From contig JABANN010000070.1 in NCBI GenBank assembly GCA_013115125.1, positions 1-64,000 on the forward strand: a stretch of DNA of 64,000 nucleotides. The letters are read 5' to 3'. Each line of letters begins with the position of its first letter. Within the stretch, counting starts at the first letter, position 1. Of this stretch, positions 7,290-36,229 are shown piece after piece. The DNA is from Perkinsus olseni. Its lineage: Eukaryota. The notes below the pieces were generated by a model. The model did not search any database. It worked only from the letters and a program-made list of their open reading frames with translations, and had not been told where the DNA came from. The position numbers were made by a program, and so were the translations under genes.

Positions 7290-7371
7290 GACACTTTGGC
7301 CGAGTGGTTAAGGCGGCGGCCTGCTAAGCCGTTGGGCTATGCCCGCGAGGGTTCGAATCTCTCACGTGTCG
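7290..7371 (+). tRNA. tRNA-Ser(GCT)
   Basis: Full cloverleaf; anticodon loop CTGCTAA; long variable arm GGGC-TAT-GCCC; T-loop TTCGAAT; one T-C mismatch in the acceptor stem. Confidence 0.93.
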
Positions 7372-7416
7372 TCATGGTTTCGAAAGTTATCGCAATATCG
7401 GCCACAGCTGAAAGCC

Positions 7417-7490
7417 TGCCCGATGCAGGATTCGAACCTACGACCATCTGCTCCGTAGGCAGTCATTCTATCCAGCTGAACTAATCGGGC
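7417..7490 (-). tRNA. tRNA-Arg(ACG)
   Basis: Acceptor stem GCCCGAT/ATCGGGC, anticodon loop CTACGGA, T-loop TTCGAAT. Confidence 0.95.
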
Positions 7491-7995
7491 ATCCAGGAGC
7501 AGTTCGTGAACCTCCTCGATTGCCGGGACATTTTCGTCGTTGGGAGCTGAGAAATCAATCACTCGTTAACTGGTTAATTGATTCATTGATCCGCAACTGA
7601 TCTAAAAAGCAAAAAACTGTTTTTTACATCACCTGATCGATTGACCAATTGACCACTCTGAAGAAAAGTGGAAAAGAGAAAAAAATAAAGCCTAAACGCG
7701 AAAGAGCAGAGTATAGCAGCGAGATGGGCCATGACGGGCAATAACAAGGAAAGCCTGAGAACCTGGAGATCTTCGCTCGGCGCAACAAAACACAGAGGTG
7801 ACGCGTCAGTACGATATCATGCAGTTGTCTTCATTATAATGTAGACTGCGAACGGTGATGTGCCGGAGAAACCTGAAGAGCAGAATCCATCGGGCATCCT
7901 AGATTAGTTCGTGAACCCCCTCGATTGCCTGGACGTTTTCGTCATTAGGAGGTGAGAAATCAATCACCCGTGAACTAGTTGATTGATCTATTGAT
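7484..7995. repeat. Diverged ~107-bp direct repeat (7484-7590 and 7889-7995) of the tRNA-Arg 5' end and upstream flank
   Basis: Both copies read atcgggcatcc..agttcgtgaacc.cctcgattgcc.ggac.ttttcgtc.tt.ggag.tgagaaatcaatcac.cgt.aact.gtt.attgat. Confidence 0.9.
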
Positions 7996-11985: not shown

Positions 11986-13978
11986 TCATCGAAGCATCTT
12001 TTCTTGTGCCCCTGACGGATCGACCTTAGGCTTGAGCAGGTCGAGGGAGGTCGAAGAGACTGGAGTCACGATGATGATCGGATCTCCCACATTCCGTGGG
12101 TACTGTAATGCCATGCTACTGGGCTCACCGCTAGGCCGCTGAATCGGGCTGGAGACGCTGAGAGCGCTGACATTCAACGCTGGTGCCGTGAGACGACGTC
12201 GGGGCGGAGGAAGAGGCGATGGGTCATCAGCTTCAGAGGAGGCCGCTCGCAACCGGTAGCTTGTCTCGTCATCACTCCCTTGCAGCCTCGCCAAGTTGCT
12301 CTCTGTGGTGGCATCATCGTCTTCAGGGAAGCCTGAGAGCCACGGATGCTCGAGTGCGTCTCGAGCAGTCAGCCTGAAATCACGGAAGTAATGTCAGCGA
12401 CCGCCAGAGGCAGGTCATGTACCTGCTGCCCGGGTAGAGTGAAAGCAGTCGATTGCGAAGGTCTCTGGCCTCTTTCGATACTGTACTGCCGAGGCCTTCG
12501 AGATCCATCGTACTGATCCGCTTCATTATTGACTTGTTGTCAGAGGCTGCCGCTGGAGGCACCGAGGGGCGTAGGAGCAGATGGAGAACAACACCAGCAG
12601 CCCACATATCAGAAGCATAGGAATACCTGAGCGGAAGAGAGACGCATGATAGCTGCCCTGACCGTACTCCAGTGAGGCGTCGTTGACGGACAATGCAGTT
12701 GCCTGCATGTTTCTGGTTATAGATTCCTCGGCGCCCGACAAGTACCTCCCCTTCCTGATGCACTCCGGTGCTAGATAATGTACTGAGCCGACAATCTGTT
12801 TATCCACAACCCCGTGTTTCCCTCTGGACCTCAAGGCGAGGCCGAAGTCTATCAATCGGGCCACCTCTTCACCATCGTCATCCTCGTCAATGACGATGTT
12901 TTCCAGCTTGACGTCACGATGTATGACACCACAAGTGTGGCACCTGAGGCGATGTGTGAAGGCACAGCTCACAAGGAGAATTGAATTATCTCCTACTGTT
13001 CCAAAGCCCGGAATAGATCCCGGACGAACTTCTTAGCGTCACTCTCTTCCATAGGGGTAGCCTTTACTCTCTCCGAAGCCATCGGAGAGGTGTTAGAGTT
13101 CGAGGACGATAATAGTCGCAAGGCTAAGCTCAAGGGTGACTTGGAGCTGCTCCTGCTCCTGCTGCTAGGGGTTACTGTAGGGGATACTGGACGAGCGTCT
13201 CTGACTAACATGCAGGTCCTCTCGCACGCATACACAACGAATCGATCTCTGTCCTACTCGAAGGAGGTATTGAGCCATCCAGACCACCAGAGGGCGGTAG
13301 GAGCGTATTCCCAAAACTAGACGACCTCCTAGCTGGATGGAACGCTGGGGAGGTATGGCGGTGCTCCAACGGGGTTGTTACCTTAGGGAATTCGTCCAGT
13401 CCCATAGTAATGACGCAAGACCTACCTGCAGGACTCTCGACAACAACGTCCCCGCCTCACAATAGTCCATCACTAATCTCACAGTCGCGTTCTCGAGATA
13501 AACCGCCTTGACTGAGCATATATTGGGATGTGGGCCAACCCTCCTGAGCATCCTAACTTCAGTACGCCACTCTGCCCGACTCTTGTCCATAGTTTTCACC
13601 GCAACCTGATAATGCAGTTCGACGACCCAACAAGCGCCCGTCCACTTCTACCAATGAGCCGTCCTTGAGGCACTTCCAAAGCTCTACAGTGGAACAACCT
13701 CCACCTCTGCCTAGTATGGGCTGTTCCGTGCACTTCTGATAATGGACGTGGATGCTACACCCACTGACGGTAACGTCGCCATCTAGACTCAGCTGGCCGG
13801 AACTCCGATTCGAGGTCGTATCCAAATTCTCAGATACATAGCAGTCCGACGGGCCGTCTCGTGAGGGAGATTGCGTCCTCGATGAGCCATCAGCCTGACT
13901 CGAATGCTCCAGCCTTGACTCTGGTCGCCCCTTTCGATTAAGGCAGAGACCACCCAAGCAGCTCCCCGGCATCCGCAT
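11986..13978 (-). CDS. Ser/Thr protein kinase (CAMK-like); multi-exon
   Basis: LGRGG, HPNI, LVMDYC, IHRDVKLEN, LIDFGLA, GSVHYLAPE, DMWAAG. Confidence 0.9.
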
Positions 13979-14150
13979 TGGTGAAGCCAACGAACTATGC
14001 GAGCTTGTCCACTACCCCAGCGATTGGATTGAATTTATACCAACTCGACAGATCAGACAAAACTATATGAATGCTCATAACAACAATAACTCTTATTAGG
14101 GACTTGACCCGTGCGAACACTCTCAGTGGGTCGGCACTCAACTGCCGCCT

Positions 14151-14235
14151 TCGAGGACATCGACGGACTCATCAGGCTCGACGGATTGTAGAATTTGCCG
14201 TAGCACCTTCATTCGTTAATTGCCGACCACCTCGA
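14151..14235 (-). promoter_or_regulatory. SECIS element in the 3' UTR of the GPx-Grx gene
   Basis: AUGA (14212-14209), 12 nt, AAA apical motif, AUU/AAU mini-stem, helix GGUGCUACGG/CCGUCGAGCC, closing UGAU (14174-14171), plus a long lower helix. Confidence 0.88.
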
Positions 14236-14258
14236 GGTCATACGGTACAAGTTTCCAC

Positions 14259-15511
14259 TTAGAGTTCCTGGTGCATCATATCTTTGATTTCACCATCAGA
14301 AATAAGCTCTTGGAGGTCACTGTTGCCGCCAATGAACTTGCCCTTGATGAACACTTGAGGGAAGGTCTTCTGACCGGTCACAGTCTTCACTGCTTCCTTG
14401 ACAGCGGCGCCATTCTCCATCGTGTCAACTTCAACGATCTCCAAAGAACTAGTCAACTGACAAAACGAAGCTAGATTCAGAATCATACGTCCGCACAACG
14501 AACCCTACCTTCTTGAGACTAGCAATAGAAGCCTTGCAGTGAGGACAATACGACAAAGTGAAGTCCACGGCGGTGCTTGGGCCATTGATCTTATCCTCAA
14601 CAAACTTCTTAGCCTGACAAGACAGATGGGCCAGCGCAAGTATTTAGAGCCGCGATTACCTCTTCCGGTGACATAGTAGACTTCTTCTCCTCTGCATCCT
14701 CCTCAGTTGCGAACTTCTTACCCTCAAGCCTGCCCTCTATGCAGGCCTCAATGTCGTCCGCAATGGACGACTCCTTTGGACTCCAGAAGCAGACCACTTC
14801 GCCACTGAGATAACAATCGATCAATGCAGAACACAAAACGTGTGAAGGTCGCTGACGTACTTCTTGTCCACTAAGAACTTGCCGAAGTTCCATGGAATTG
14901 GCTTGGACGTCCCTGACTTGGGATCGTAAAGTCCAGAGTGATACTTCAGGAATCTGAAAGAGCAACAATTACTCACATAAGTCATGCCGATGGGAGACGT
15001 ACTCAAAGACGGGCGACGCCTTGTCACCGTTAACATCACATGGTTCGGCCAATAAGAAGACCTTGTCCTTAACACCAGGGTAAGGCTTAAGGATGTCTGT
15101 GACGAAGTCATCGATATCCTGGCTCGTCTTCATCTCCTGGTTGAGGAATTGTCTACGTAGAAAGAGGACATAAGACCCTATCAATAGTTAATGAGACAAC
15201 TTACCGGCTGGGGAAACCGACGATTTTGAAACCCCTGTCCCCGAATTTTTGGCCCAGCTCCCCGAAGAGCTTGTATTGGGCCTGCGTTAAGCCTCATTTG
15301 GATGCGACATTCGCCACAAGCACGACATCACCTACCGAAGGTAATGATAACCATGACACAGGTCCATGCAAAAGCATATAAGCTTACCACGAAACTCCTC
15401 GAAGTTCAGAACCTTGCCGTTGATAAGCGGGGCTGAGAGCTTGTAGAAGTTGTCGACAGTGACGCGGGGCTTGGTGGCACCAAAGCCGAGCGCACTCTGC
15501 ATTCCTCCCAT
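14259..15511 (-). CDS. Selenocysteine glutathione peroxidase fused to a C-terminal dithiol glutaredoxin; multi-exon
   Basis: MGGMQS...VLVANVASK-TGA-GLTQAQY...GFPSRQFLNQE...PWNFGKFLVD, linker, then YCPHC...TFPQVFIKGKFIGG. In-frame TGA at 15296-15294; exons join in phase through GT-AG introns. Confidence 0.92.
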
Positions 15512-16156
15512 GACTGATTACTTTCTTTTTCCGAGTTGAAAATAAGAATAAACTCTACTGAAATTAATATTAACATCAAAGTCCAGCCACATAGCACATC
15601 AGAAAACTAGTTACAAGGCCAAAAGTGCTACTAGCCCAAGCACAAAATGGGACAGTTGTGTTGGCGGGATGCCGGGAATTGTATCCTGGATGGACTCGCC
15701 TGCGTCTCGACATGCTCCCAGCACTATCTCTATTCAACCTCAGTATAATCCTTGACGATGGTGCTGGTCAGCACTCGAACGTCGCAGTAACTTGCTCGCA
15801 CTCCTCTCCAGCTTAGCACAGTCACCTGGCTGCAATTTTTGCCTAGAGGGCCATGTTATCCATGCTGTGTCGAATACCCACACTAGTGGACGTCTTCGCA
15901 GGGCACGAAGCATGCCCAGCTTCATATCCGCACTCTAATAGTAAAAAGACGAGAAAGGTGATGCCAAAAAGGAGACAACACGGCCGAGTAACGTGTGAAA
16001 TCTCCATGATCGCCGCTAGTGTTGCTACAAGGAGGGGGAATGATTCCGGGAATGCCCAACAGTAATAGCTCAGAGTAATCCTATTTCTGTGGTACATGAG
16101 TACCATGACCATCACCAAGGCACGCGTTAGGAGTGAACTGAGCTCGTAAGCGCTCC

Positions 16157-16517
16157 TTTGGACAACATCACCTTCCTGTCCATTCTACAAACGCCGACAC
16201 GTGTCCAAATCTAGCCCTAGGGGTGATCTTTCGACAACAATATACGAAAAGCGCGCGCCGCTCAATGTCTTCTTTGAACAACTGTTGGCGAAAGCCTCGC
16301 TTAGGGAGAGTATTGGACAGGTTTTTTGGACACTTTCCGCGTGTCGACTTGTCCAAAGGGCCTCCTCCGCGTCAATTGGACAGAAAACCGAAAAAAGATG
16401 CCCGGTGACGTTTGGACAAGCATCGGGACCCAATATTGCAATAATCTTGTCCAAAAGCCTACTTTGGCGATTCTCGACAAGTTGTCGACGACAACTACCT
16501 GCCAAGTTGTCCAAAAA
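16157..16517. repeat. Array of TTGGACA/TGTCCAA motifs, MITE/subterminal-repeat-like
   Basis: Nine exact copies in both orientations within ~360 bp plus variants; bounded by TTTGGACAAC / GTTGTCCAAA. Confidence 0.65.
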
Positions 16518-16810
16518 CCCTTGTTGTTCGTCGTCAGCTGCCTTACCAAAAGCGTCGGTTTCTCGCATCACTTCTTTTTGACCGATAGTCTCTGATACTT
16601 CATTTGGCCCGTCGAAGCAGCGTCAACGAGGTTCTTACACCTTGGCCCTATAACTTAGGAGTCCTTCCTTGAGGCGTACCTTAAAGGAAGGAGTCCTTAA
16701 CGATCCTTCCTTAAGGGGCAACTCCTTATAACTTTTCAATTTTAAGGATCGTAAGGAATTCCTTCCTTTAAGGTACACCCCAAGGAGCAGATCTATATCA
16801 TTTTTCTAAG

Positions 16811-16878
16811 GAAAAGTGCAAAGTCTCCTTAGAAAAGTGCAAAGTCTCCTTAGAAAAGTGCAAAGTCTCCTTAGAAAA
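16811..16878 (+). repeat. Tandem repeat, 3 x 21 bp (GAAAAGTGCAAAGTCTCCTTA)
   Basis: Three exact head-to-tail copies plus a partial fourth. Confidence 0.97.
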
Positions 16879-16917
16879 ATGTCAAGGGCGAGCGAGATTT
16901 CTTCCTTAGGAAAATAA

Positions 16918-17035
16918 CCGCGTGTTCAATAGATCTCTCCTGAGTTTCAAGAACGCTCCCAGGATCGTATTTTACACGTTAAATTCAATCCTGGGAGCGC
17001 TCCTGAAACTCAGGAGAGGTCTATTGAACACCCCC
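16918..17035. mobile_element. PIF/Harbinger (Tourist-like) MITE
   Basis: ~44-bp inverted arms; right end reads GGGGGTGTTC inward; TAA on both sides (16915-16917, 17036-17038). Confidence 0.65.
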
Positions 17036-17215
17036 TAACATTCTCCTTAGGAAAATGATTTTAATCATCGGCTGGGCTGATTGGCCGTTGAGGAATTGCA
17101 AGGAGTCCTAAGTTTTGCAAGATTCACCGGCAAGCCGCAGCATCAAAATTCTAGCACAGGACTGTTTGAATATTATCACCGTCGAGGCCTACTAGACCGC
17201 TTCTCTGTTCAGTTC

Positions 17216-20200
17216 ATGCACCAAATGCCTACCGTTAAACTGAGAGTCTCGATAAAAACTATCACCACTGGGGACTTCATCTCGCTCCATCCTGATGACA
17301 GTCAAATGCTCTTCCTGGGAGTGCCTCCGAGCGACCATTTCTGTCGGGTCCTTCGAACTAGCACTCCTGGCCAGTACGTAGGCTGGGCCGGCCACTCAGC
17401 TTCGAGTAAAGGTACTGTGGAGGTGTCGAGGCCCTTCGCGTCTGCCTTAGGATGGACAGAAGGGCAGCCCGTTGAGCTCACTCCTGTCCCTGTGGAGAGC
17501 ATACCCCGCAACGCGGACCCCATTGTGATACGACCATCCAGCAGCGATGATTGGGAAGTAGTAGAGTTGCAGGCAGAATACCTTGAGTCGGCCTTATTGT
17601 CTCAAATAGCGGTGCTCTTTCCGGGGCTCAAGTTTCCCTTATGGCCGGAAGGTGGCGGGAAACCTATTTTGATGGAGGCTGTCTGGGACGGTGTCGATGA
17701 TAAGCAGGAAACGGTGAAGCCCAAGGTACCGTTCAGGTTGCTTCGTGAGTCTGACGAGTTGGCGATAGAAGCTAAGCCAAGGCAGCTGCTACTGCCCGAC
17801 GCCCGGAGTGAGGTCAAACGGCTGTGTCGGGTAGTCTGTGACGACGAGGTCTTCCCTGCTGAACTTTACGACAAATATGGAGTTACTTGTATCCTTCATA
17901 GTAGTGCTGGAGTCACCACTGGTATGGTTAGACTAGGGGATAAGATAGTAGCAGCTTCGATGGTCGACAACGATCTGGTCGATCCAGGGTACGTCCTGTT
18001 GCATCCCCTTCTAGCAGCCCATTATCCTGATGTGATCAGCGAGGCCGGGCCGGTACTGGTAAAGGCTTGCACGGATGAGCCCATCCTGCCCTCAGAAATT
18101 ATTCTTGTCACTGCTAAGTATTTGGGTGACGTTGGTCGGGAGTTTTCCGAGACTGCGCGCCGGCTCAAATGCCTGGTGATCCAAAATGACGGCTGGGTAC
18201 GACTTAGACGTCCCTCCGGGATGATTAACGGCAACGAGATGCGCCGAGAGGAGCCTTCCCAACCCCGGCCCGCTTGTCTTACAGTTTCACTGGATTGTGA
18301 CACAGCAGAGATCCAGTATGCTGATGAAGAGGGCCGGTCTGGGAAACCCGTCCCCAATACCGCACCTCCGCCGGATTGGGTTGACGTTAGGGTCACCTTT
18401 CCAGAGCAGTCATCTTCCGACGTCTGCGTGGTGCTACCGGAGATGCTGCCTAACGACACCGGGATCGTCGGACTCAATGGGACGACCGTGGGCGGTGGAA
18501 TACGCGTTGGTCTCAGCGCGAGGGTCGACGAGTCCATAGCGGTTACTTCGAAGCCTCGGAATCCGATACTCCCCTTCATCCCGTCTGAAGCGGCCGGGGT
18601 TGTACAGACCTACCGACACCGCCAGTTCGAGAAGCCTCCTCCTTCGCTGCACAATTCGGCTGTTGAGGTATCATCGTACATGGCTGCTGGGCTGTCAGGT
18701 AGGGTGCCCTCGTCCTTCCCGGTGCCTGGTGTGGTCGTAACGGGGCCGCCTGGGAGTGGGAAGACTACAGTGGCTCACTGTGCTTTAGAGGCTCTGGGGC
18801 GTACGGTAGTAGAGGTGGACTGCGCGCAGCTAGCCTCGGCTGAGAGGTTCAAGTTCGCAGTGGTCAAGAAGGCTCTCTTGGGTGCACTCAAGTTCGCCTG
18901 TACCTACGACCCACCAAGCGTGTTGTTGCTGGATGGTGTGGACGTTCTGTTGGGGCTGAGGCAGGGCATCAAGCGACAGGGCGGAGCGACGTCAGTATCG
19001 CAGAGTAGGAGCAAGGTGCTTGCCAGCATCTTCTGGGATATCCTACACTTTCATGTCCGCCCTACGCGGTCTCTCATCATCCTGGGCACCGCTGAGACCA
19101 TTGATGGACTGGAAGGCCTCTGCTCCTACGCTGTCGCCCTCCCAGCGACACTTAACGTGAAGGACCGCCTGTCTATACTAGGCACCGATCGGGGCGAGGG
19201 CTACACGCTGAAGGAAGTGTCAGTGCTGGCTAGGACGGGAGTAGATCTTCGCGATAGACGACGGGCTGAGGACGAGGCAGTGAATCGGTCCTCCCTCTAC
19301 AAGTTGGACCATCTGGGTGGCTCGAGTATAAGGCGCGCAACAGAGAGGCTCATGGATGCTATACAGCTGCCGTTGAAGTATCCTGCGCTGTGTGGTGGTG
19401 TACTCGTTCCTAAAGGAGCAATGCTTGTTGGACCACCTGGGTGTGGTAAGACAGCGTTGGCAATGAGTGTCGCTGAGGAGTGTGGGCTACCTGTGGTAGC
19501 GGTCCGTGGCCCGGAGCTATTGTCCAAGTACATTGGGGGTAGCGAGGCTCGAGTCAGAGAGACCTTTGCTAAGGCTCGTGCGAGGGCGCCGTGTGTCCTG
19601 TTCTTTGACGAAGTTGATGCCCTTTGCCCTGTTAGAGGGGCTGACTCGACGGGCGTCACGGATCGGGTGGTTAACCAAATGCTCACTTACCTTGATGGTG
19701 TGGAAGTCTCGGACAGCCCAGTATTTGTGGTAGCGGCAACGAGTCGACCTGATATGGTCGACCCGGCACTGTCGAGACCGGGGAGGCTGGACATCAGTCT
19801 ACTGTGCGATATGCCATCCGGAAGAGATGACCTCGTTGATGTTTTGGAGCATGCTATCGCTGCTTTCGAAGGGCTTCAGGATGTCATTGCTGACGCTCCG
19901 TCAGACTGGGCTACGCAGTTGATAGGACTGCTGTCCGCCGGGATTGGCTTCACGGGGGCTGACGTCAGGGCAGCTCTGGCGACGGCCCAGCTGAGTATAG
20001 ATGAGGAGGGGGAAGAGGGTTGGAGGGCTCTTAAGGATGCATGTAATAGGGTTCATCCGTTGACATATCCATAGTGGCTAGTGTCTACTTGCTCCTCAGT
20101 CGCTAAGAAGAGCCCCTCCGCCCCTCCAGAGGTGTTGAAACGGTACAACAGTCAGTTCGCCGCGTATCGGCGGGATGGCCGTCGTGACGAAGACCCCTAC

Positions 20201-33425: not shown

Positions 33426-36229
33426 TCACTCCGAGCCAGCTGCCTTATTCACTACGGCAAGCCATTTTGTCTCGGTCTCAGGCTGCTGATCATCCACAGG
33501 CCGGGTGATAGGTACCTGAGACACATCACATGCTCAATCAACGGGTTCATGGGGCTCTATGAGACCGGGTTTTACATGACAGTAGCGTCCCTGACGTTGA
33601 ATTCTCGTGGAATAGACCGACGGCATCTCGAACGAGTACCTGCGGATGAGTAGTTGCGTTCCCGGTAACACACAACTGCGCTGCGGGAGGCTGGCCTACT
33701 CTTTCTTATCCACGTCCTCTTCTGGGAACGTAATCCTTACTCGGCAAACATGCCTCTCTCGCCATCGGAGGAAAGATTGCGGAACCTGCAGAGGACGCGT
33801 CGCGTCCTCACGAGCACGAGGCGAGAGAGCACGTTTCTCACCATCATCCGCCAGAAGTGGTCTCGCATCAGATCGTTCGAGATCACAAACACTTTTTCAG
33901 CTGCCCGTCCTTCTTTCTCTGCTAGTGCACGGGCTTGCTCCTCACAGCGGATTGCTGCATACATCCAGAACCAATCATCATTGGCACGAGGAGGAACCTG
34001 CCCGGGGACCAGTGAATAACAATCTGGCCAGAACGAGGACCTACTCTGTAAAGCTGGAAGAGGCTAGCCTTATCATCATTTTGCTTTGTCCACTTATCAT
34101 CGTACCTGTTGTGCAGGGGCTGTCACGATCAAAGCTCGGCCATGGTCGGAATGATGGCCAGGACTTGACTTACTTCTTGATGAGCTCATCGAACTTGGTC
34201 CTCTTCTCATCGCTTAGTTCCTCAATGTCGTCTTCGTCGCTGGTGTGAGAACTCTGAGGCTTGGAAGAAGCCGATTCGTCAGCACTGTCAGGGATGGACC
34301 CATTGGCTGGTGCGGACGACGATGTCAGCTCGGGGTCCAGCTCAGGGGCGAAGCTACCTGGATCGACGCAGCAGTTTGATACACCAGAACCCTAGTGGCT
34401 CGGACACGGGCCGAAAACGGAACCGAATAATCCTCGACCGACCGCGTTGACGTGTGGTGGAACTTCAGAATTTCACCGACAGTCTGGCCGAGTGGTCTAA
34501 GGCGGTGGCTTTAGGCGCCATTCCGAAAGGGCGTGGGTTCGAACCCCACGGCTGTCACTTCTTCTTGCGATCTTTTTCCGACAGACAGCGACAGAGTAGT
34601 CGAGATACCATGTTGATCATCCCCGCTTCAGAGCCCACCATCAAGCCTAGCGAGCTTCTGCTTCTGCTTGCTTGCAATTTTCCGTCTTTTCTTGGCAAGG
34701 GGGCCCGTACCGACAGTCAAGTCGAGGCCCTGCTCCAGCCATTTGCTGTGCAAGATAACCAGAACCTTGTAAGGGTTGATGATACGAACATGATACGAAC
34801 AAAGCGCGTATCAAAAGGCTTGGCAGCTCCACCTTCTTTCCTTCATTTGTGAAATGCTCCACAACATCATCTATCTGCGAGTGCTGGAAAAAACCATCCG
34901 TGTAATTCTGGTTCATGTGCCCAATATTAGCTGCATCAACGATGATGGTTGCGGGTGTCGACTGCGAATCTAACGGTCGGGACGAGCATTTAGTTCGCCT
35001 GAATAACTAGCCGCTCCGAAATGAAGCCGACCTAAGTAATCCTTCAAGTCGAGGAATTTCTGTTGCTGTTCTTCTGATAAGTCTTGCGTCGCCAGTCTCT
35101 CAGTTAGGTCCGAAAGCTCGTGCAGCTCCTCGTCTGTGATATCAATCGACCGCAGCTTGATGCCAGTCGCGGAGCATGCTCCCTCTGCGGAGATCTCCGT
35201 GGGGAGAACTTCTACGCCCGAATCCCGCTGGCCCATGGTTTTAATAGCATCCGTCAATCTCGAATCTGTGACGGCATCTATGGTGTTAGCAACTTTATCG
35301 GCGAGGAAGTCGAAACCTACAAGCAGCGATGTATGACCGACGGACGTGTTATCTCGCCGCGGTTACTTTCGCCCGCAGGACAACACCGAAGGAGGTAGGA
35401 CAACTCTGCTTCACCGAGAGTGAATCCTCGGCTCTCTAGGTCTGCGACCAGCTTCATAGCCGCCTGAGCAGGCGAGGTGGACAGCAGATACTTATGGACC
35501 GAATCCAATCTCACATCGAAATCCTGGTACTGTGGTGAGGAATACAACTGCATGAGAGGAGCATAACTTCTTAACCGAGGTTGGAAGTTGCTCAGGCCTA
35601 ATAGAGCGGATAAGGATGGCAGACAGATGAACACTCACATTCCTTGTGGTACTGGAGGGCCAGATCGATCTCCCCAGCTGCGACGGCCAACTTCACCATG
35701 CCAGTGAGGATGTTCTCTTGCCGCTGCGAGCCTGCGGATAGACAGTAGCCAGGCGCTGCTGTAAGAAGGTGCCCTTACACTTATCCAGGACCTGCTGTGC
35801 AAGTTTGAGGATCTTTCGGGCTGTTTCGATGTCCTTGGCGGGGCATCCTGCCTCCAGATTAACATCACTAGCAGCAACGGTGAGGATACGGGCATGCATC
35901 TGAAGGAACGCACTACTACGACTAGATCTCCCGTCAGCGGCACGGATGTGAGCCACATGCGGGTGGCCAGCGGCGGAACCATCCTCCAGTTCGTGGTTGT
36001 CCTCACCCCCTTGGTCAGGCCTGCCTCCACAAAATCTTCATTTGAGATGATCTCCTCGTAAGTCTTGAATGCCCCCAAGATATCATGCCCCCGAGCTGAC
36101 GTGTACCTGCAGATGATCGGCGGGTGGTGGTGGACACTCGCCGCTGCTGCTGACGACGCACATTTTGGTTTGAATGGCCTTCAACTGCTTCTTTAAGGCG
36201 ACCTCCTTGGTGTTCTTCTGATGGGGCAT
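33426..36229 (-). CDS. PRORP: Protein-only RNase P (helical repeats + NYN nuclease); multi-exon, start uncertain
   Basis: IIVDAANIGHMNQN, VLVILHSKW, ANDDWFWMYAA, VISNDLMRDHFW, FLRWRERH, YSTRIQ, C-terminal WLAV. Basic AKKRRK insertion resembles an NLS. Confidence 0.88.
34478..34557 (+). tRNA. tRNA-Leu(TAG)
   Basis: Acceptor GACAGTC/GGCTGTC, anticodon loop TTTAGGC, variable arm, T-loop TTCGAAC, downstream T5 run. Confidence 0.96.

Follow-up and report, generated by a model that had tools for sequence, protein, structure and literature searches.

What does an in-frame UGA codon do at the catalytic position of a peroxidase, and why is that peroxidase joined to a glutaredoxin? Both questions are raised by a minus-strand gene in the stretch of Perkinsus olseni DNA analysed here (contig JABANN010000070.1, positions 1 to 64,000; 64,000 nucleotides, referred to below as the window). 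An initial annotation of this DNA had proposed that ordinary GT-AG splicing yields a single protein, in which a selenocysteine (Sec) glutathione peroxidase (GPx) is fused to a glutaredoxin (Grx). Indeed, seven minus-strand exons with 942 nt of coding sequence give a GPx-linker-Grx frame of 313 amino acids, in which Pfam recognizes GSHPx (PF00255) in the first part and Glutaredoxin (PF00462) in the second part. The sole in-frame stop inside this reading is the TGA at 15296-15294, codon 54, in the context NVASK-U-GLT. One transcript carries the GPx, the linker, the Grx and a 3' element resembling a selenocysteine insertion sequence (SECIS), and UGA54 is very probably read as Sec.

Four of the 24 listed sequencing runs were examined for transcripts (X1, X2, X3 and X21). 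Three studies are the sources of runs X1, X2 and X3; the record of X2 states RNA, while X1 and X3 are RNA by guess. Each of these three runs gave one contig of 1124-1185 nt that contains the six predicted joints, the TGA and the SECIS region, with unchanged letters. The proposed splicing and the presence of RNA spanning the GPx and Grx exons were thus borne out by single contigs. A sequencing error at the TGA is ruled out by the same letters in the contigs of three of the four examined runs; the codon is therefore no artefact of assembly and is not removed by splicing. Contigs lose rare variants, and the conclusion that exon 2 is retained concerns the main form. About 4% of the reads of the raw-read run X21 were scanned, with 0 matching reads, a result that carries no weight. 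The 3' ends of the RNA contigs lie between 14073 and 14146 and include the SECIS region. The contigs of X1 and X2 have loose 5' ends at 15559, which together with the genomic AG complete the sequence CTCAAG, named as the end of the spliced leader in the accessible part of PMC6394959. The fusion mRNA is therefore trans-spliced. The gene is composed of the following parts:

15558-15559, minus strand: trans-splice acceptor AG, site of the spliced leader at the mRNA 5' end, placed by loose contig ends and a pyrimidine-rich upstream stretch
15512-15557, minus strand: 5' untranslated region (UTR) of 46 nt, free of upstream ATG, from RNA contigs
15388-15511, minus strand: exon 1, with the start codon, an MGxxxS motif (15511-15494) and the start of the GPx domain
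15205-15331, minus strand: exon 2, with the catalytic loop and FPS motif (PF00255, 42.7 bits; cut-off 27)
15294-15296, minus strand: in-frame UGA (codon 54), which the alignment to the Cys of homologues places at the peroxidatic position, probably read as Sec
15003-15152, minus strand: exon 3, with catalytic Q89 (15139-15137) and a helix that lacks the resolving Cys (V101)
14861-14953, minus strand: exon 4, with catalytic W155 and N156 (14892-14887)
14660-14804, minus strand: exon 5, with the end of the GPx domain and a charged linker (about residues 191-210, 14728-14669)
14509-14613, minus strand: exon 6, with the Grx active site CPHC (14547-14536, residues 236-239) and Leu233 where a Lys is usual
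14259-14456, minus strand: coding part of exon 7, with K268, TFP (279-281), GG (291-292) and the stop TAA at 14261-14259 (PF00462, 33.6 bits; cut-off 22.9)
14147-14237, minus strand: SECIS-like element of type I, its outer helices reaching 14237 and 14147, from our own pattern and a constrained fold, inside the RNA contigs
14073-14258, minus strand: 3' UTR as covered by RNA contigs, which end at 14073, 14074 and 14097

All six introns are GT-AG introns of 46-56 nt each. Derivation of these introns from the three tRNAs of the window was rejected, as none of the six resembles one of them beyond chance (best case 31 of 500 shuffles). The tRNA genes in question are tRNA-Ser (7290-7371), tRNA-Arg (7416-7491) and tRNA-Leu (34478-34558).

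How is UGA54 read? The codon aligns with the Cys of P0014, the nearest full-length relative (46% identical), and via P0014 with the Cys of yeast Hyr1, which agrees with the peroxidatic position claimed for the TGA from the outset. The Q and WN residues named at that time were confirmed as Q89, W155 and N156, so that the catalytic tetrad is complete (U54, Q89, W155, N156); a tetrad of Sec or Cys, Gln, Trp and Asn is described for GPxs in the accessible part of PMC7763103. Reading of UGA as Trp was rejected. Trp is encoded by TGG at 61 places in the seven open reading frames (ORFs) of at least 250 codons in the window and TGA terminates four of these seven, therefore UGA does not generally serve as a sense codon.

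The initial annotation had placed a SECIS core about 50 nt past the stop codon. In our own pattern test a type I SECIS-like element was found there, its core starting 46 nt past the stop. ATGA lies at 14212-14209, AAA comes at 14196-14194 after a spacing of 12 nt, and GA stands at 14173-14172, 21 nt beyond AA; in helix II 9 of 11 positions are paired, and the element is closed by an outer helix. When the pattern was combined with the helix requirement, 3-9 out of 3000 shuffled UTRs passed, and three sites in the 128 kb of both strands; a rule with 8 pairs was passed by 22 of 3000 shuffles and six sites. Several observations weaken the assignment. The bare pattern is unselective, occurring 54 times in the window when 40 occurrences are expected, and an initial scan with a cut-off of -7 kcal/mol passed over the site, for which helix II has -6.8 kcal/mol; the relaxed thresholds were chosen after the site had been seen. 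The minimum-energy fold of the UTR differs from the SECIS fold (z 0.14), the SECIS-constrained fold lying 1.1 kcal/mol higher. No SECIS was recognized by Rfam in 13900-14400, with E values up to 10 admitted, and a tRNA-Sec is not among the three tRNAs that Rfam finds in the window.

The modest stability of the element and its lack of an Rfam match would also suit a UGA54 that is a true stop, leaving either a dead GPx half or a restart at Met91, by which a GPx stub and a Grx would be produced. Two GenBank models (KAF4680960.1 and KAF4723145.1) do begin at this Met. This explanation is very improbable, because the UGA sits precisely on the catalytic codon, the part ahead of it is well kept in P. 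chesapeaki, and a patterned SECIS is present in the UTR. Furthermore, a selenophosphate synthetase of P. marinus is labelled as a selenocysteine protein in supplement file 11 of PMC4561486, as far as this source is accessible, which also speaks against a true stop.

Reading of UGA54 as Sec has to be weighed as well against removal of the codon by splicing, either with a 36-nt stretch (15317-15282) or with the whole of exon 2, which would leave a protein devoid of its catalytic residue. The 36-nt stretch round the UGA starts with GT and ends with AG, two GenBank models contain such skips, and rare variants drop from contigs. All three covered runs, however, keep the entire exon 2 and none has such a joint. 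Splicing out is refuted as the main form, and we consider this explanation hardly conceivable.

GenBank treats the gene in three distinct ways, each of which avoids codon 54. In P0162 (KAF4652740.1 and KAF4672655.1, P. olseni) the first 42 and last 230 residues are identical to the reading presented here and exon 2 is skipped. KAF4680960.1 and KAF4723145.1, also P. olseni models, start at Met91, behind the UGA (a GenBank model of 224 amino acids); P0002, a P. olseni model that starts behind the UGA, is identical at 218 of 223 residues and P0163 is a second such model. P0001 of P. chesapeaki (KAF4657887.1) is identical at 260 of 301 residues, lacks exactly 12 residues round the UGA and continues into a kinase. 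The GT and AG at the ends of the 36-nt stretch explain why gene-finding software could have predicted a false intron there; the RNA retains the stretch. From the gap of 12 residues a UGA codon may be inferred in P. chesapeaki also. The expectation that standard pipelines would misannotate this gene proved correct, the models skipping the UGA exon, starting behind the UGA or dropping 12 residues. All four full or partial GenBank models seen miss the catalytic residue, so that studies of expression or knock-out built on them would misjudge the gene.

The P. chesapeaki model merges the fusion with a kinase, which means that the gene order is the same there. In P. olseni the downstream Ser/Thr kinase gene (minus strand) has its own spliced-leader site at 13996 and its own contigs, and a GPx-Grx-kinase triple protein was rejected for this species. 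The kinase starts about 77 nt past the end of the longest fusion contig.

Which kind of peroxidase is the N-terminal half? PF00255 reaches 57.1 bits in the P. chesapeaki orthologue (cut-off 27). GPxs are recycled by glutathione (GSH) directly, or by thioredoxin via a resolving Cys. The initial annotation had observed that the FPCNQF motif reads FPSRQF and that its Cys is thus absent. This is correct, the Cys of FPC being Ser83 here; however, two-Cys GPxs do not use the FPC Cys for resolution, their resolving position lying in the next helix. In the helix that follows the QE motif, Val101 stands where Hyr1 has a Cys, which we take to be the resolving one, and no Cys occurs between residues 54 and 122. 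The real resolving position is therefore devoid of Cys as well, which helps the case for recycling by GSH that had been put forward, and the thioredoxin-dependent two-Cys type was rejected. The two-Cys GPxs yeast Hyr1/Gpx3 and poplar GPx5 share the fold and the short loop, and Hyr1 is the best solved match of P0014; the Perkinsus protein differs from them by Sec in place of Cys, a resolving position that is not Cys and a fused Grx. The unfused near relatives P0014, P0021, P0027 and P0083 have a Cys in the resolving helix.

An AlphaFold model is available for the P. chesapeaki protein, which lacks the 12 residues of the catalytic loop (predicted local distance difference test, pLDDT, 86.7; predicted template modelling score, pTM, 0.66). 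It has two folded domains, the best fold matches being GPX4 and poplar GPx5, and no listed chain spans both domains. The root mean square deviation is 5.2-5.9 to GPx1, 2 and 5, compared to mostly 2.4-4.0 to GPx4-type chains. A long loop serves oligomerisation in the tetrameric vertebrate GPxs (GPx1, 2, 3, 5, 6); by the comparison of deviations this loop is lacking here and the tetrameric type was rejected. GPx4-type Sec-GPxs (human GPX4, Schistosoma GPx) have in common with the Perkinsus protein the U/Q/W/N tetrad, the lack of a resolving Cys and a UGA with a 3' SECIS, and the fold match has an E value of 2e-12 with a template modelling score of about 0.8 of target. The identity is 27-30% only, GPx4 has no Grx domain, and lipid specificity of the Perkinsus enzyme is a prediction.

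The protein starts with MGxxxS, the consensus for N-myristoylation, and perhaps it is myristoylated there. Among 166 GPx proteins with an intact start, 10 begin in this way, and 7 of these 10 are from Perkinsus (4) or its nearest relatives (3).

The C-terminal half had been called a complete dithiol glutaredoxin with CPHC (14547-14536), TFP and GG after a charged linker, all of which was found by Pfam and in the sequence. The features of a class I glutaredoxin are there (CPHC, TFP, GGNSD and no class II loop insertion), and the best solved matches are Glutaredoxin-2 chains, for example 3CTF, which share GQKT-P and GGNSDL with it. The description as complete holds for CxxC, TFP and GG; the domain is not quite canonical, because Leu233 occupies the site, three residues ahead of the active Cys, at which a Lys is conserved. 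Lys268 stands where most Grx have a Gln in helix 3. Among 120 Cys-bearing domains of 131 aligned Grx domains, K or R stands at the position of the helix-3 Gln in 12 of the 17 domains that lack the Lys and in 16 of the 103 that have it (Fisher p 8e-6, with two Perkinsus rows included and kinship uncorrected). This fits a relocated charge. In yeast Grx7 the equivalent Lys binds the glycine carboxylate of glutathione, according to the accessible part of PMC7138851. CPHC glutaredoxins that lack this Lys and have a Lys at the helix-3 Gln site were also seen in P0064, P0116, P0122, P0130, P0141 and P0152, and such proteins possibly form an undescribed subtype.

Several known systems resemble this protein. 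PGdx of Haemophilus influenzae (PDB 1NM3) likewise has an N-terminal thiol peroxidase and a C-terminal CxxC Grx (PMC8113037, accessible part). Its peroxidase is a bacterial Prx5 with Cys, in contrast to a eukaryotic GPx with Sec in Perkinsus. Recycling of PGdx is driven by GSH and takes place between subunits. Membership of the peroxiredoxin-glutaredoxin (Prx-Grx) hybrids was rejected, because the N-terminal domain is PF00255 and P0001, P0002 and P0162 gave no Redoxin or AhpC-TSA match. The Perkinsus protein belongs to the GPx family and most likely works like a Prx-Grx hybrid without being one. Thioredoxin glutathione reductase is a selenoprotein redox fusion too and its Grx domain matches the Perkinsus Grx by sequence; identity with this enzyme was rejected, as the flavin disulfide reductase domain with its C-terminal Sec is missing and the Perkinsus protein ends after its C-terminal Grx. 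The GST-MsrA fusion of Emiliania is another redox selenoprotein fusion, whereas the Perkinsus protein has neither a GST nor an MsrA domain (PMC7539508, accessible part).

How would the two halves work together? The proposed cycle would start from one trans- and cis-spliced mRNA with GPx, linker, Grx and 3' element, as seen in the contigs. The SECIS, 826 nt downstream, would recode UGA54 as Sec. To judge by the family, Q89, W155 and N156 would hold Sec54, which would reduce a hydroperoxide and become a selenenic acid. With no resolving Cys at hand, it is rather likely that GSH would form a Se-SG adduct. Cys236 of the tethered Grx, on the same or a neighbouring chain, would remove this adduct, a second GSH would free glutathione disulphide, and glutathione reductase with NADPH would close the cycle. 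Recycling of the Sec-GPx by GSH through its own Grx, by analogy with the bacterial Prx-Grx hybrids, is the reading that we somewhat favour. Moreover, we are slightly inclined to think that myristoylation of MGxxxS would bring the enzyme to membranes, where a GPx4-like monomer fold could reduce lipid hydroperoxides.

A number of observations count against parts of this scheme. Thiols reduce Sec-GPxs, for example GPx1 and GPx4, in the absence of a fused Grx (PMC7763103, accessible part), which means that the Grx may be dispensable. The lack of a resolving Cys is not specific for fusions, as the unfused P0080, P0063, P0194, P0193 and P0308, of both clades described below, lack it as well, while P0071, although a fusion, does carry a Cys in this helix. 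The linker between the domains is of low confidence in the P. chesapeaki model, and in the AlphaFold model of an Ammonia fusion (pTM 0.58) the two domains are likewise folded and the linker is disordered. In P0014 and P0166 the MGxxxS stands at an internal Met. Finally, by analogy, loss of the Lys may make the kinetics with GSH poor.

Some of these facts would be equally well explained if the halves work independently, the GPx being reduced by GSH or thioredoxin directly while the Grx deglutathionylates other proteins. The fusion would then merely co-locate and co-regulate two antioxidant activities and tie Grx synthesis to selenium. Sec-GPxs that work without Grx (PMC7763103, accessible part), the single-domain nature of the closest GPx relatives, the low-confidence linker in both AlphaFold models and the frequent lack of a resolving Cys among unfused relatives are consistent with this. 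The same domain order in a second, separate GPx clade, however, suggests a coupled function, and the Prx-Grx hybrids are a precedent for donor-acceptor coupling (PMC8113037, accessible part); we consider independent halves rather unlikely.

A third possibility is a peroxide sensor or relay, in which the GPx would pass oxidation by H2O2 via the Grx to targets, in the way in which yeast Gpx3/Hyr1 acts on Yap1. GPx-based relays are known (PMC7763103, accessible part), the GSH site of the Grx is altered (L233, K268), and ascorbate peroxidase is the reported H2O2-removing activity in P. marinus extracts (PMC6642578, accessible part). However, the sequence gives no hint of targets, and the yeast relay GPx is a two-Cys enzyme while the Perkinsus GPx lacks the resolving Cys. 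A relay is therefore quite unlikely.

Is the pairing of the two domains restricted to Perkinsus? A phmmer search with residues 1-299 of P0001 against 1.84 billion representatives gave 3658 matches at E up to 0.001; with the best 150 of these 3658 used, 4 of the 161 proteins collected had both domains. A profile search gave 199 matches, of which the best 120 were used, and both domains were then present in at least 14 of 314 proteins, five of them Perkinsus entries and nine others. These others include proteins of the foraminifera Ammonia sp. (P0301) and Rosalina sp. (P0191), and P0061, P0071, P0184-P0186 and P0313 are further fusions of the foraminiferan group. P0061, P0071 and P0184 have Cys at the catalytic site, and P0185, P0186 and P0191 begin behind it. 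The domain order, acidic linker and dithiol Grx are the same as in Perkinsus; the foraminiferan proteins differ in having CPFC or CPYC with the Lys kept, in a distance from WNF to CxxC of 106-170 amino acids compared to 81 in Perkinsus, and in their GPx clade, in which unfused kin from Bolivina, Nonionella and Reticulomyxa are also found.

In the GPx trees Perkinsus groups with the unfused P0027, P0014 and P0083, and a branch apart from these (support 97-98) is made up by the foraminiferan group. A single GPx clade of Perkinsus and foraminiferan fusions was rejected by the approximately unbiased (AU) test (p 0.034; 43 rows chosen from 113, LG+G4, with the group defined after the first tree). 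In the Grx tree a single clade of all fusions was neither found nor rejected (p-AU 0.44), this domain having too few columns. The Sec fusion of Perkinsus and the Cys fusions of foraminifera thus likely arose separately.

In the ESM Atlas, P0162 and P0071 as queries gave only plain GPx clusters below 0.9 and none listed with both domains, a blank that is uninformative. A metagenome and viral scan with the clade alignment returned at least 97 loci (80 metagenome, 17 viral), all GPx and none with a Grx match; these were generic GPx loci, none of the Perkinsus clade. TGA at the GPx catalytic codon was seen in three of the at least 97 listed loci, the metagenome loci L010, L034 and L078. Many near GPx relatives (P0029, P0047, P0049, P0063, P0080, P0090 and others) have their first Met immediately past the catalytic site, and W stands at this site in some other relatives; both patterns suggest uncalled Sec-GPxs. 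In the foraminiferan GPxs P0061, P0184, P0187-P0189, P0193 and P0194, fused and unfused, the active site has a CxC, with an extra Cys two residues before the peroxidatic one. In P0142 (KAJ1534540.1, Nowakowskiella sp.) a Rieske and a pyridine nucleotide-disulfide reductase domain come after the GPx domain, and this protein is either a true fusion or a merged model.

Some other features of the window lie nearby. On the minus strand, a 1014-nt contig of run X1, covering 15581 to at least 15900, stops 22 nt upstream of the leader site, and no ATG ORF longer than 127 amino acids overlaps 15560-17100. A repeat cluster at 16657-17057 consists of one hairpin with 54-nt arms (89%), another with 43-nt arms (86%) and 21-nt tandem units, and may be a mobile-element remnant. 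On the plus strand, 17081-20074 is an open frame of 997 codons with two Walker A motifs, which by eye looks like a PEX1-type AAA ATPase.

The fusion had been considered as perhaps undescribed, and no GPx-Grx fusion or Perkinsus selenoproteome was found in the open-access literature, to which the search was confined. The accessible parts of PMC7435645, PMC3281104 and PMC3329448 do not mention a GPx-Grx fusion, and Perkinsus is not named in the accessible supplements of PMC5330540; the algal selenoproteome paper PMC7539508 reports, in its accessible part, GST-MsrA and SelM fusions. The foraminiferan GPx-Grx fusions are database proteins, of which no description was found in the open-access literature either. 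Literature matches for 'peroxidase-glutaredoxin' are reportedly Vibrio and Haemophilus papers. The domain pairing itself is not unique, however, because foraminifera have its Cys form, and entries in the databases, P0001 among them, already display both Pfam domains.

A role in defence against peroxide is plausible for Perkinsus. P. marinus lives in mollusc haemocytes, is without catalase and has its H2O2 removed by ascorbate peroxidase; glutathione peroxidase is mentioned just in general terms in the accessible part of this source (PMC6642578). The relevance of a host oxidative burst, raised in the initial annotation, fits this parasitic lifestyle, but free-living foraminifera also carry the GPx-Grx pairing, therefore a burst is not required to explain the fusion. 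A route driven by GSH would supplement the known ascorbate peroxidase route in this catalase-less intracellular parasite. That the protein is, as a whole, a membrane-bound, myristoylated and self-recharging selenoperoxidase that guards parasite membranes against lipid peroxidation, and a eukaryotic GPx counterpart of the Prx-Grx hybrids invented at least twice, can be put forward tentatively and appears doubtful in this complete form. Since the Grx is encoded behind the UGA, its synthesis would depend on selenium. A GPx tethered to a Grx points to a third recycling route, for which lineages with Sec and with Cys can be tested in parallel. The antioxidant set of Perkinsus has been described as superoxide dismutases and ascorbate peroxidase, with no catalase (PMC6642578, accessible part), and a hidden selenoenzyme would now join it.

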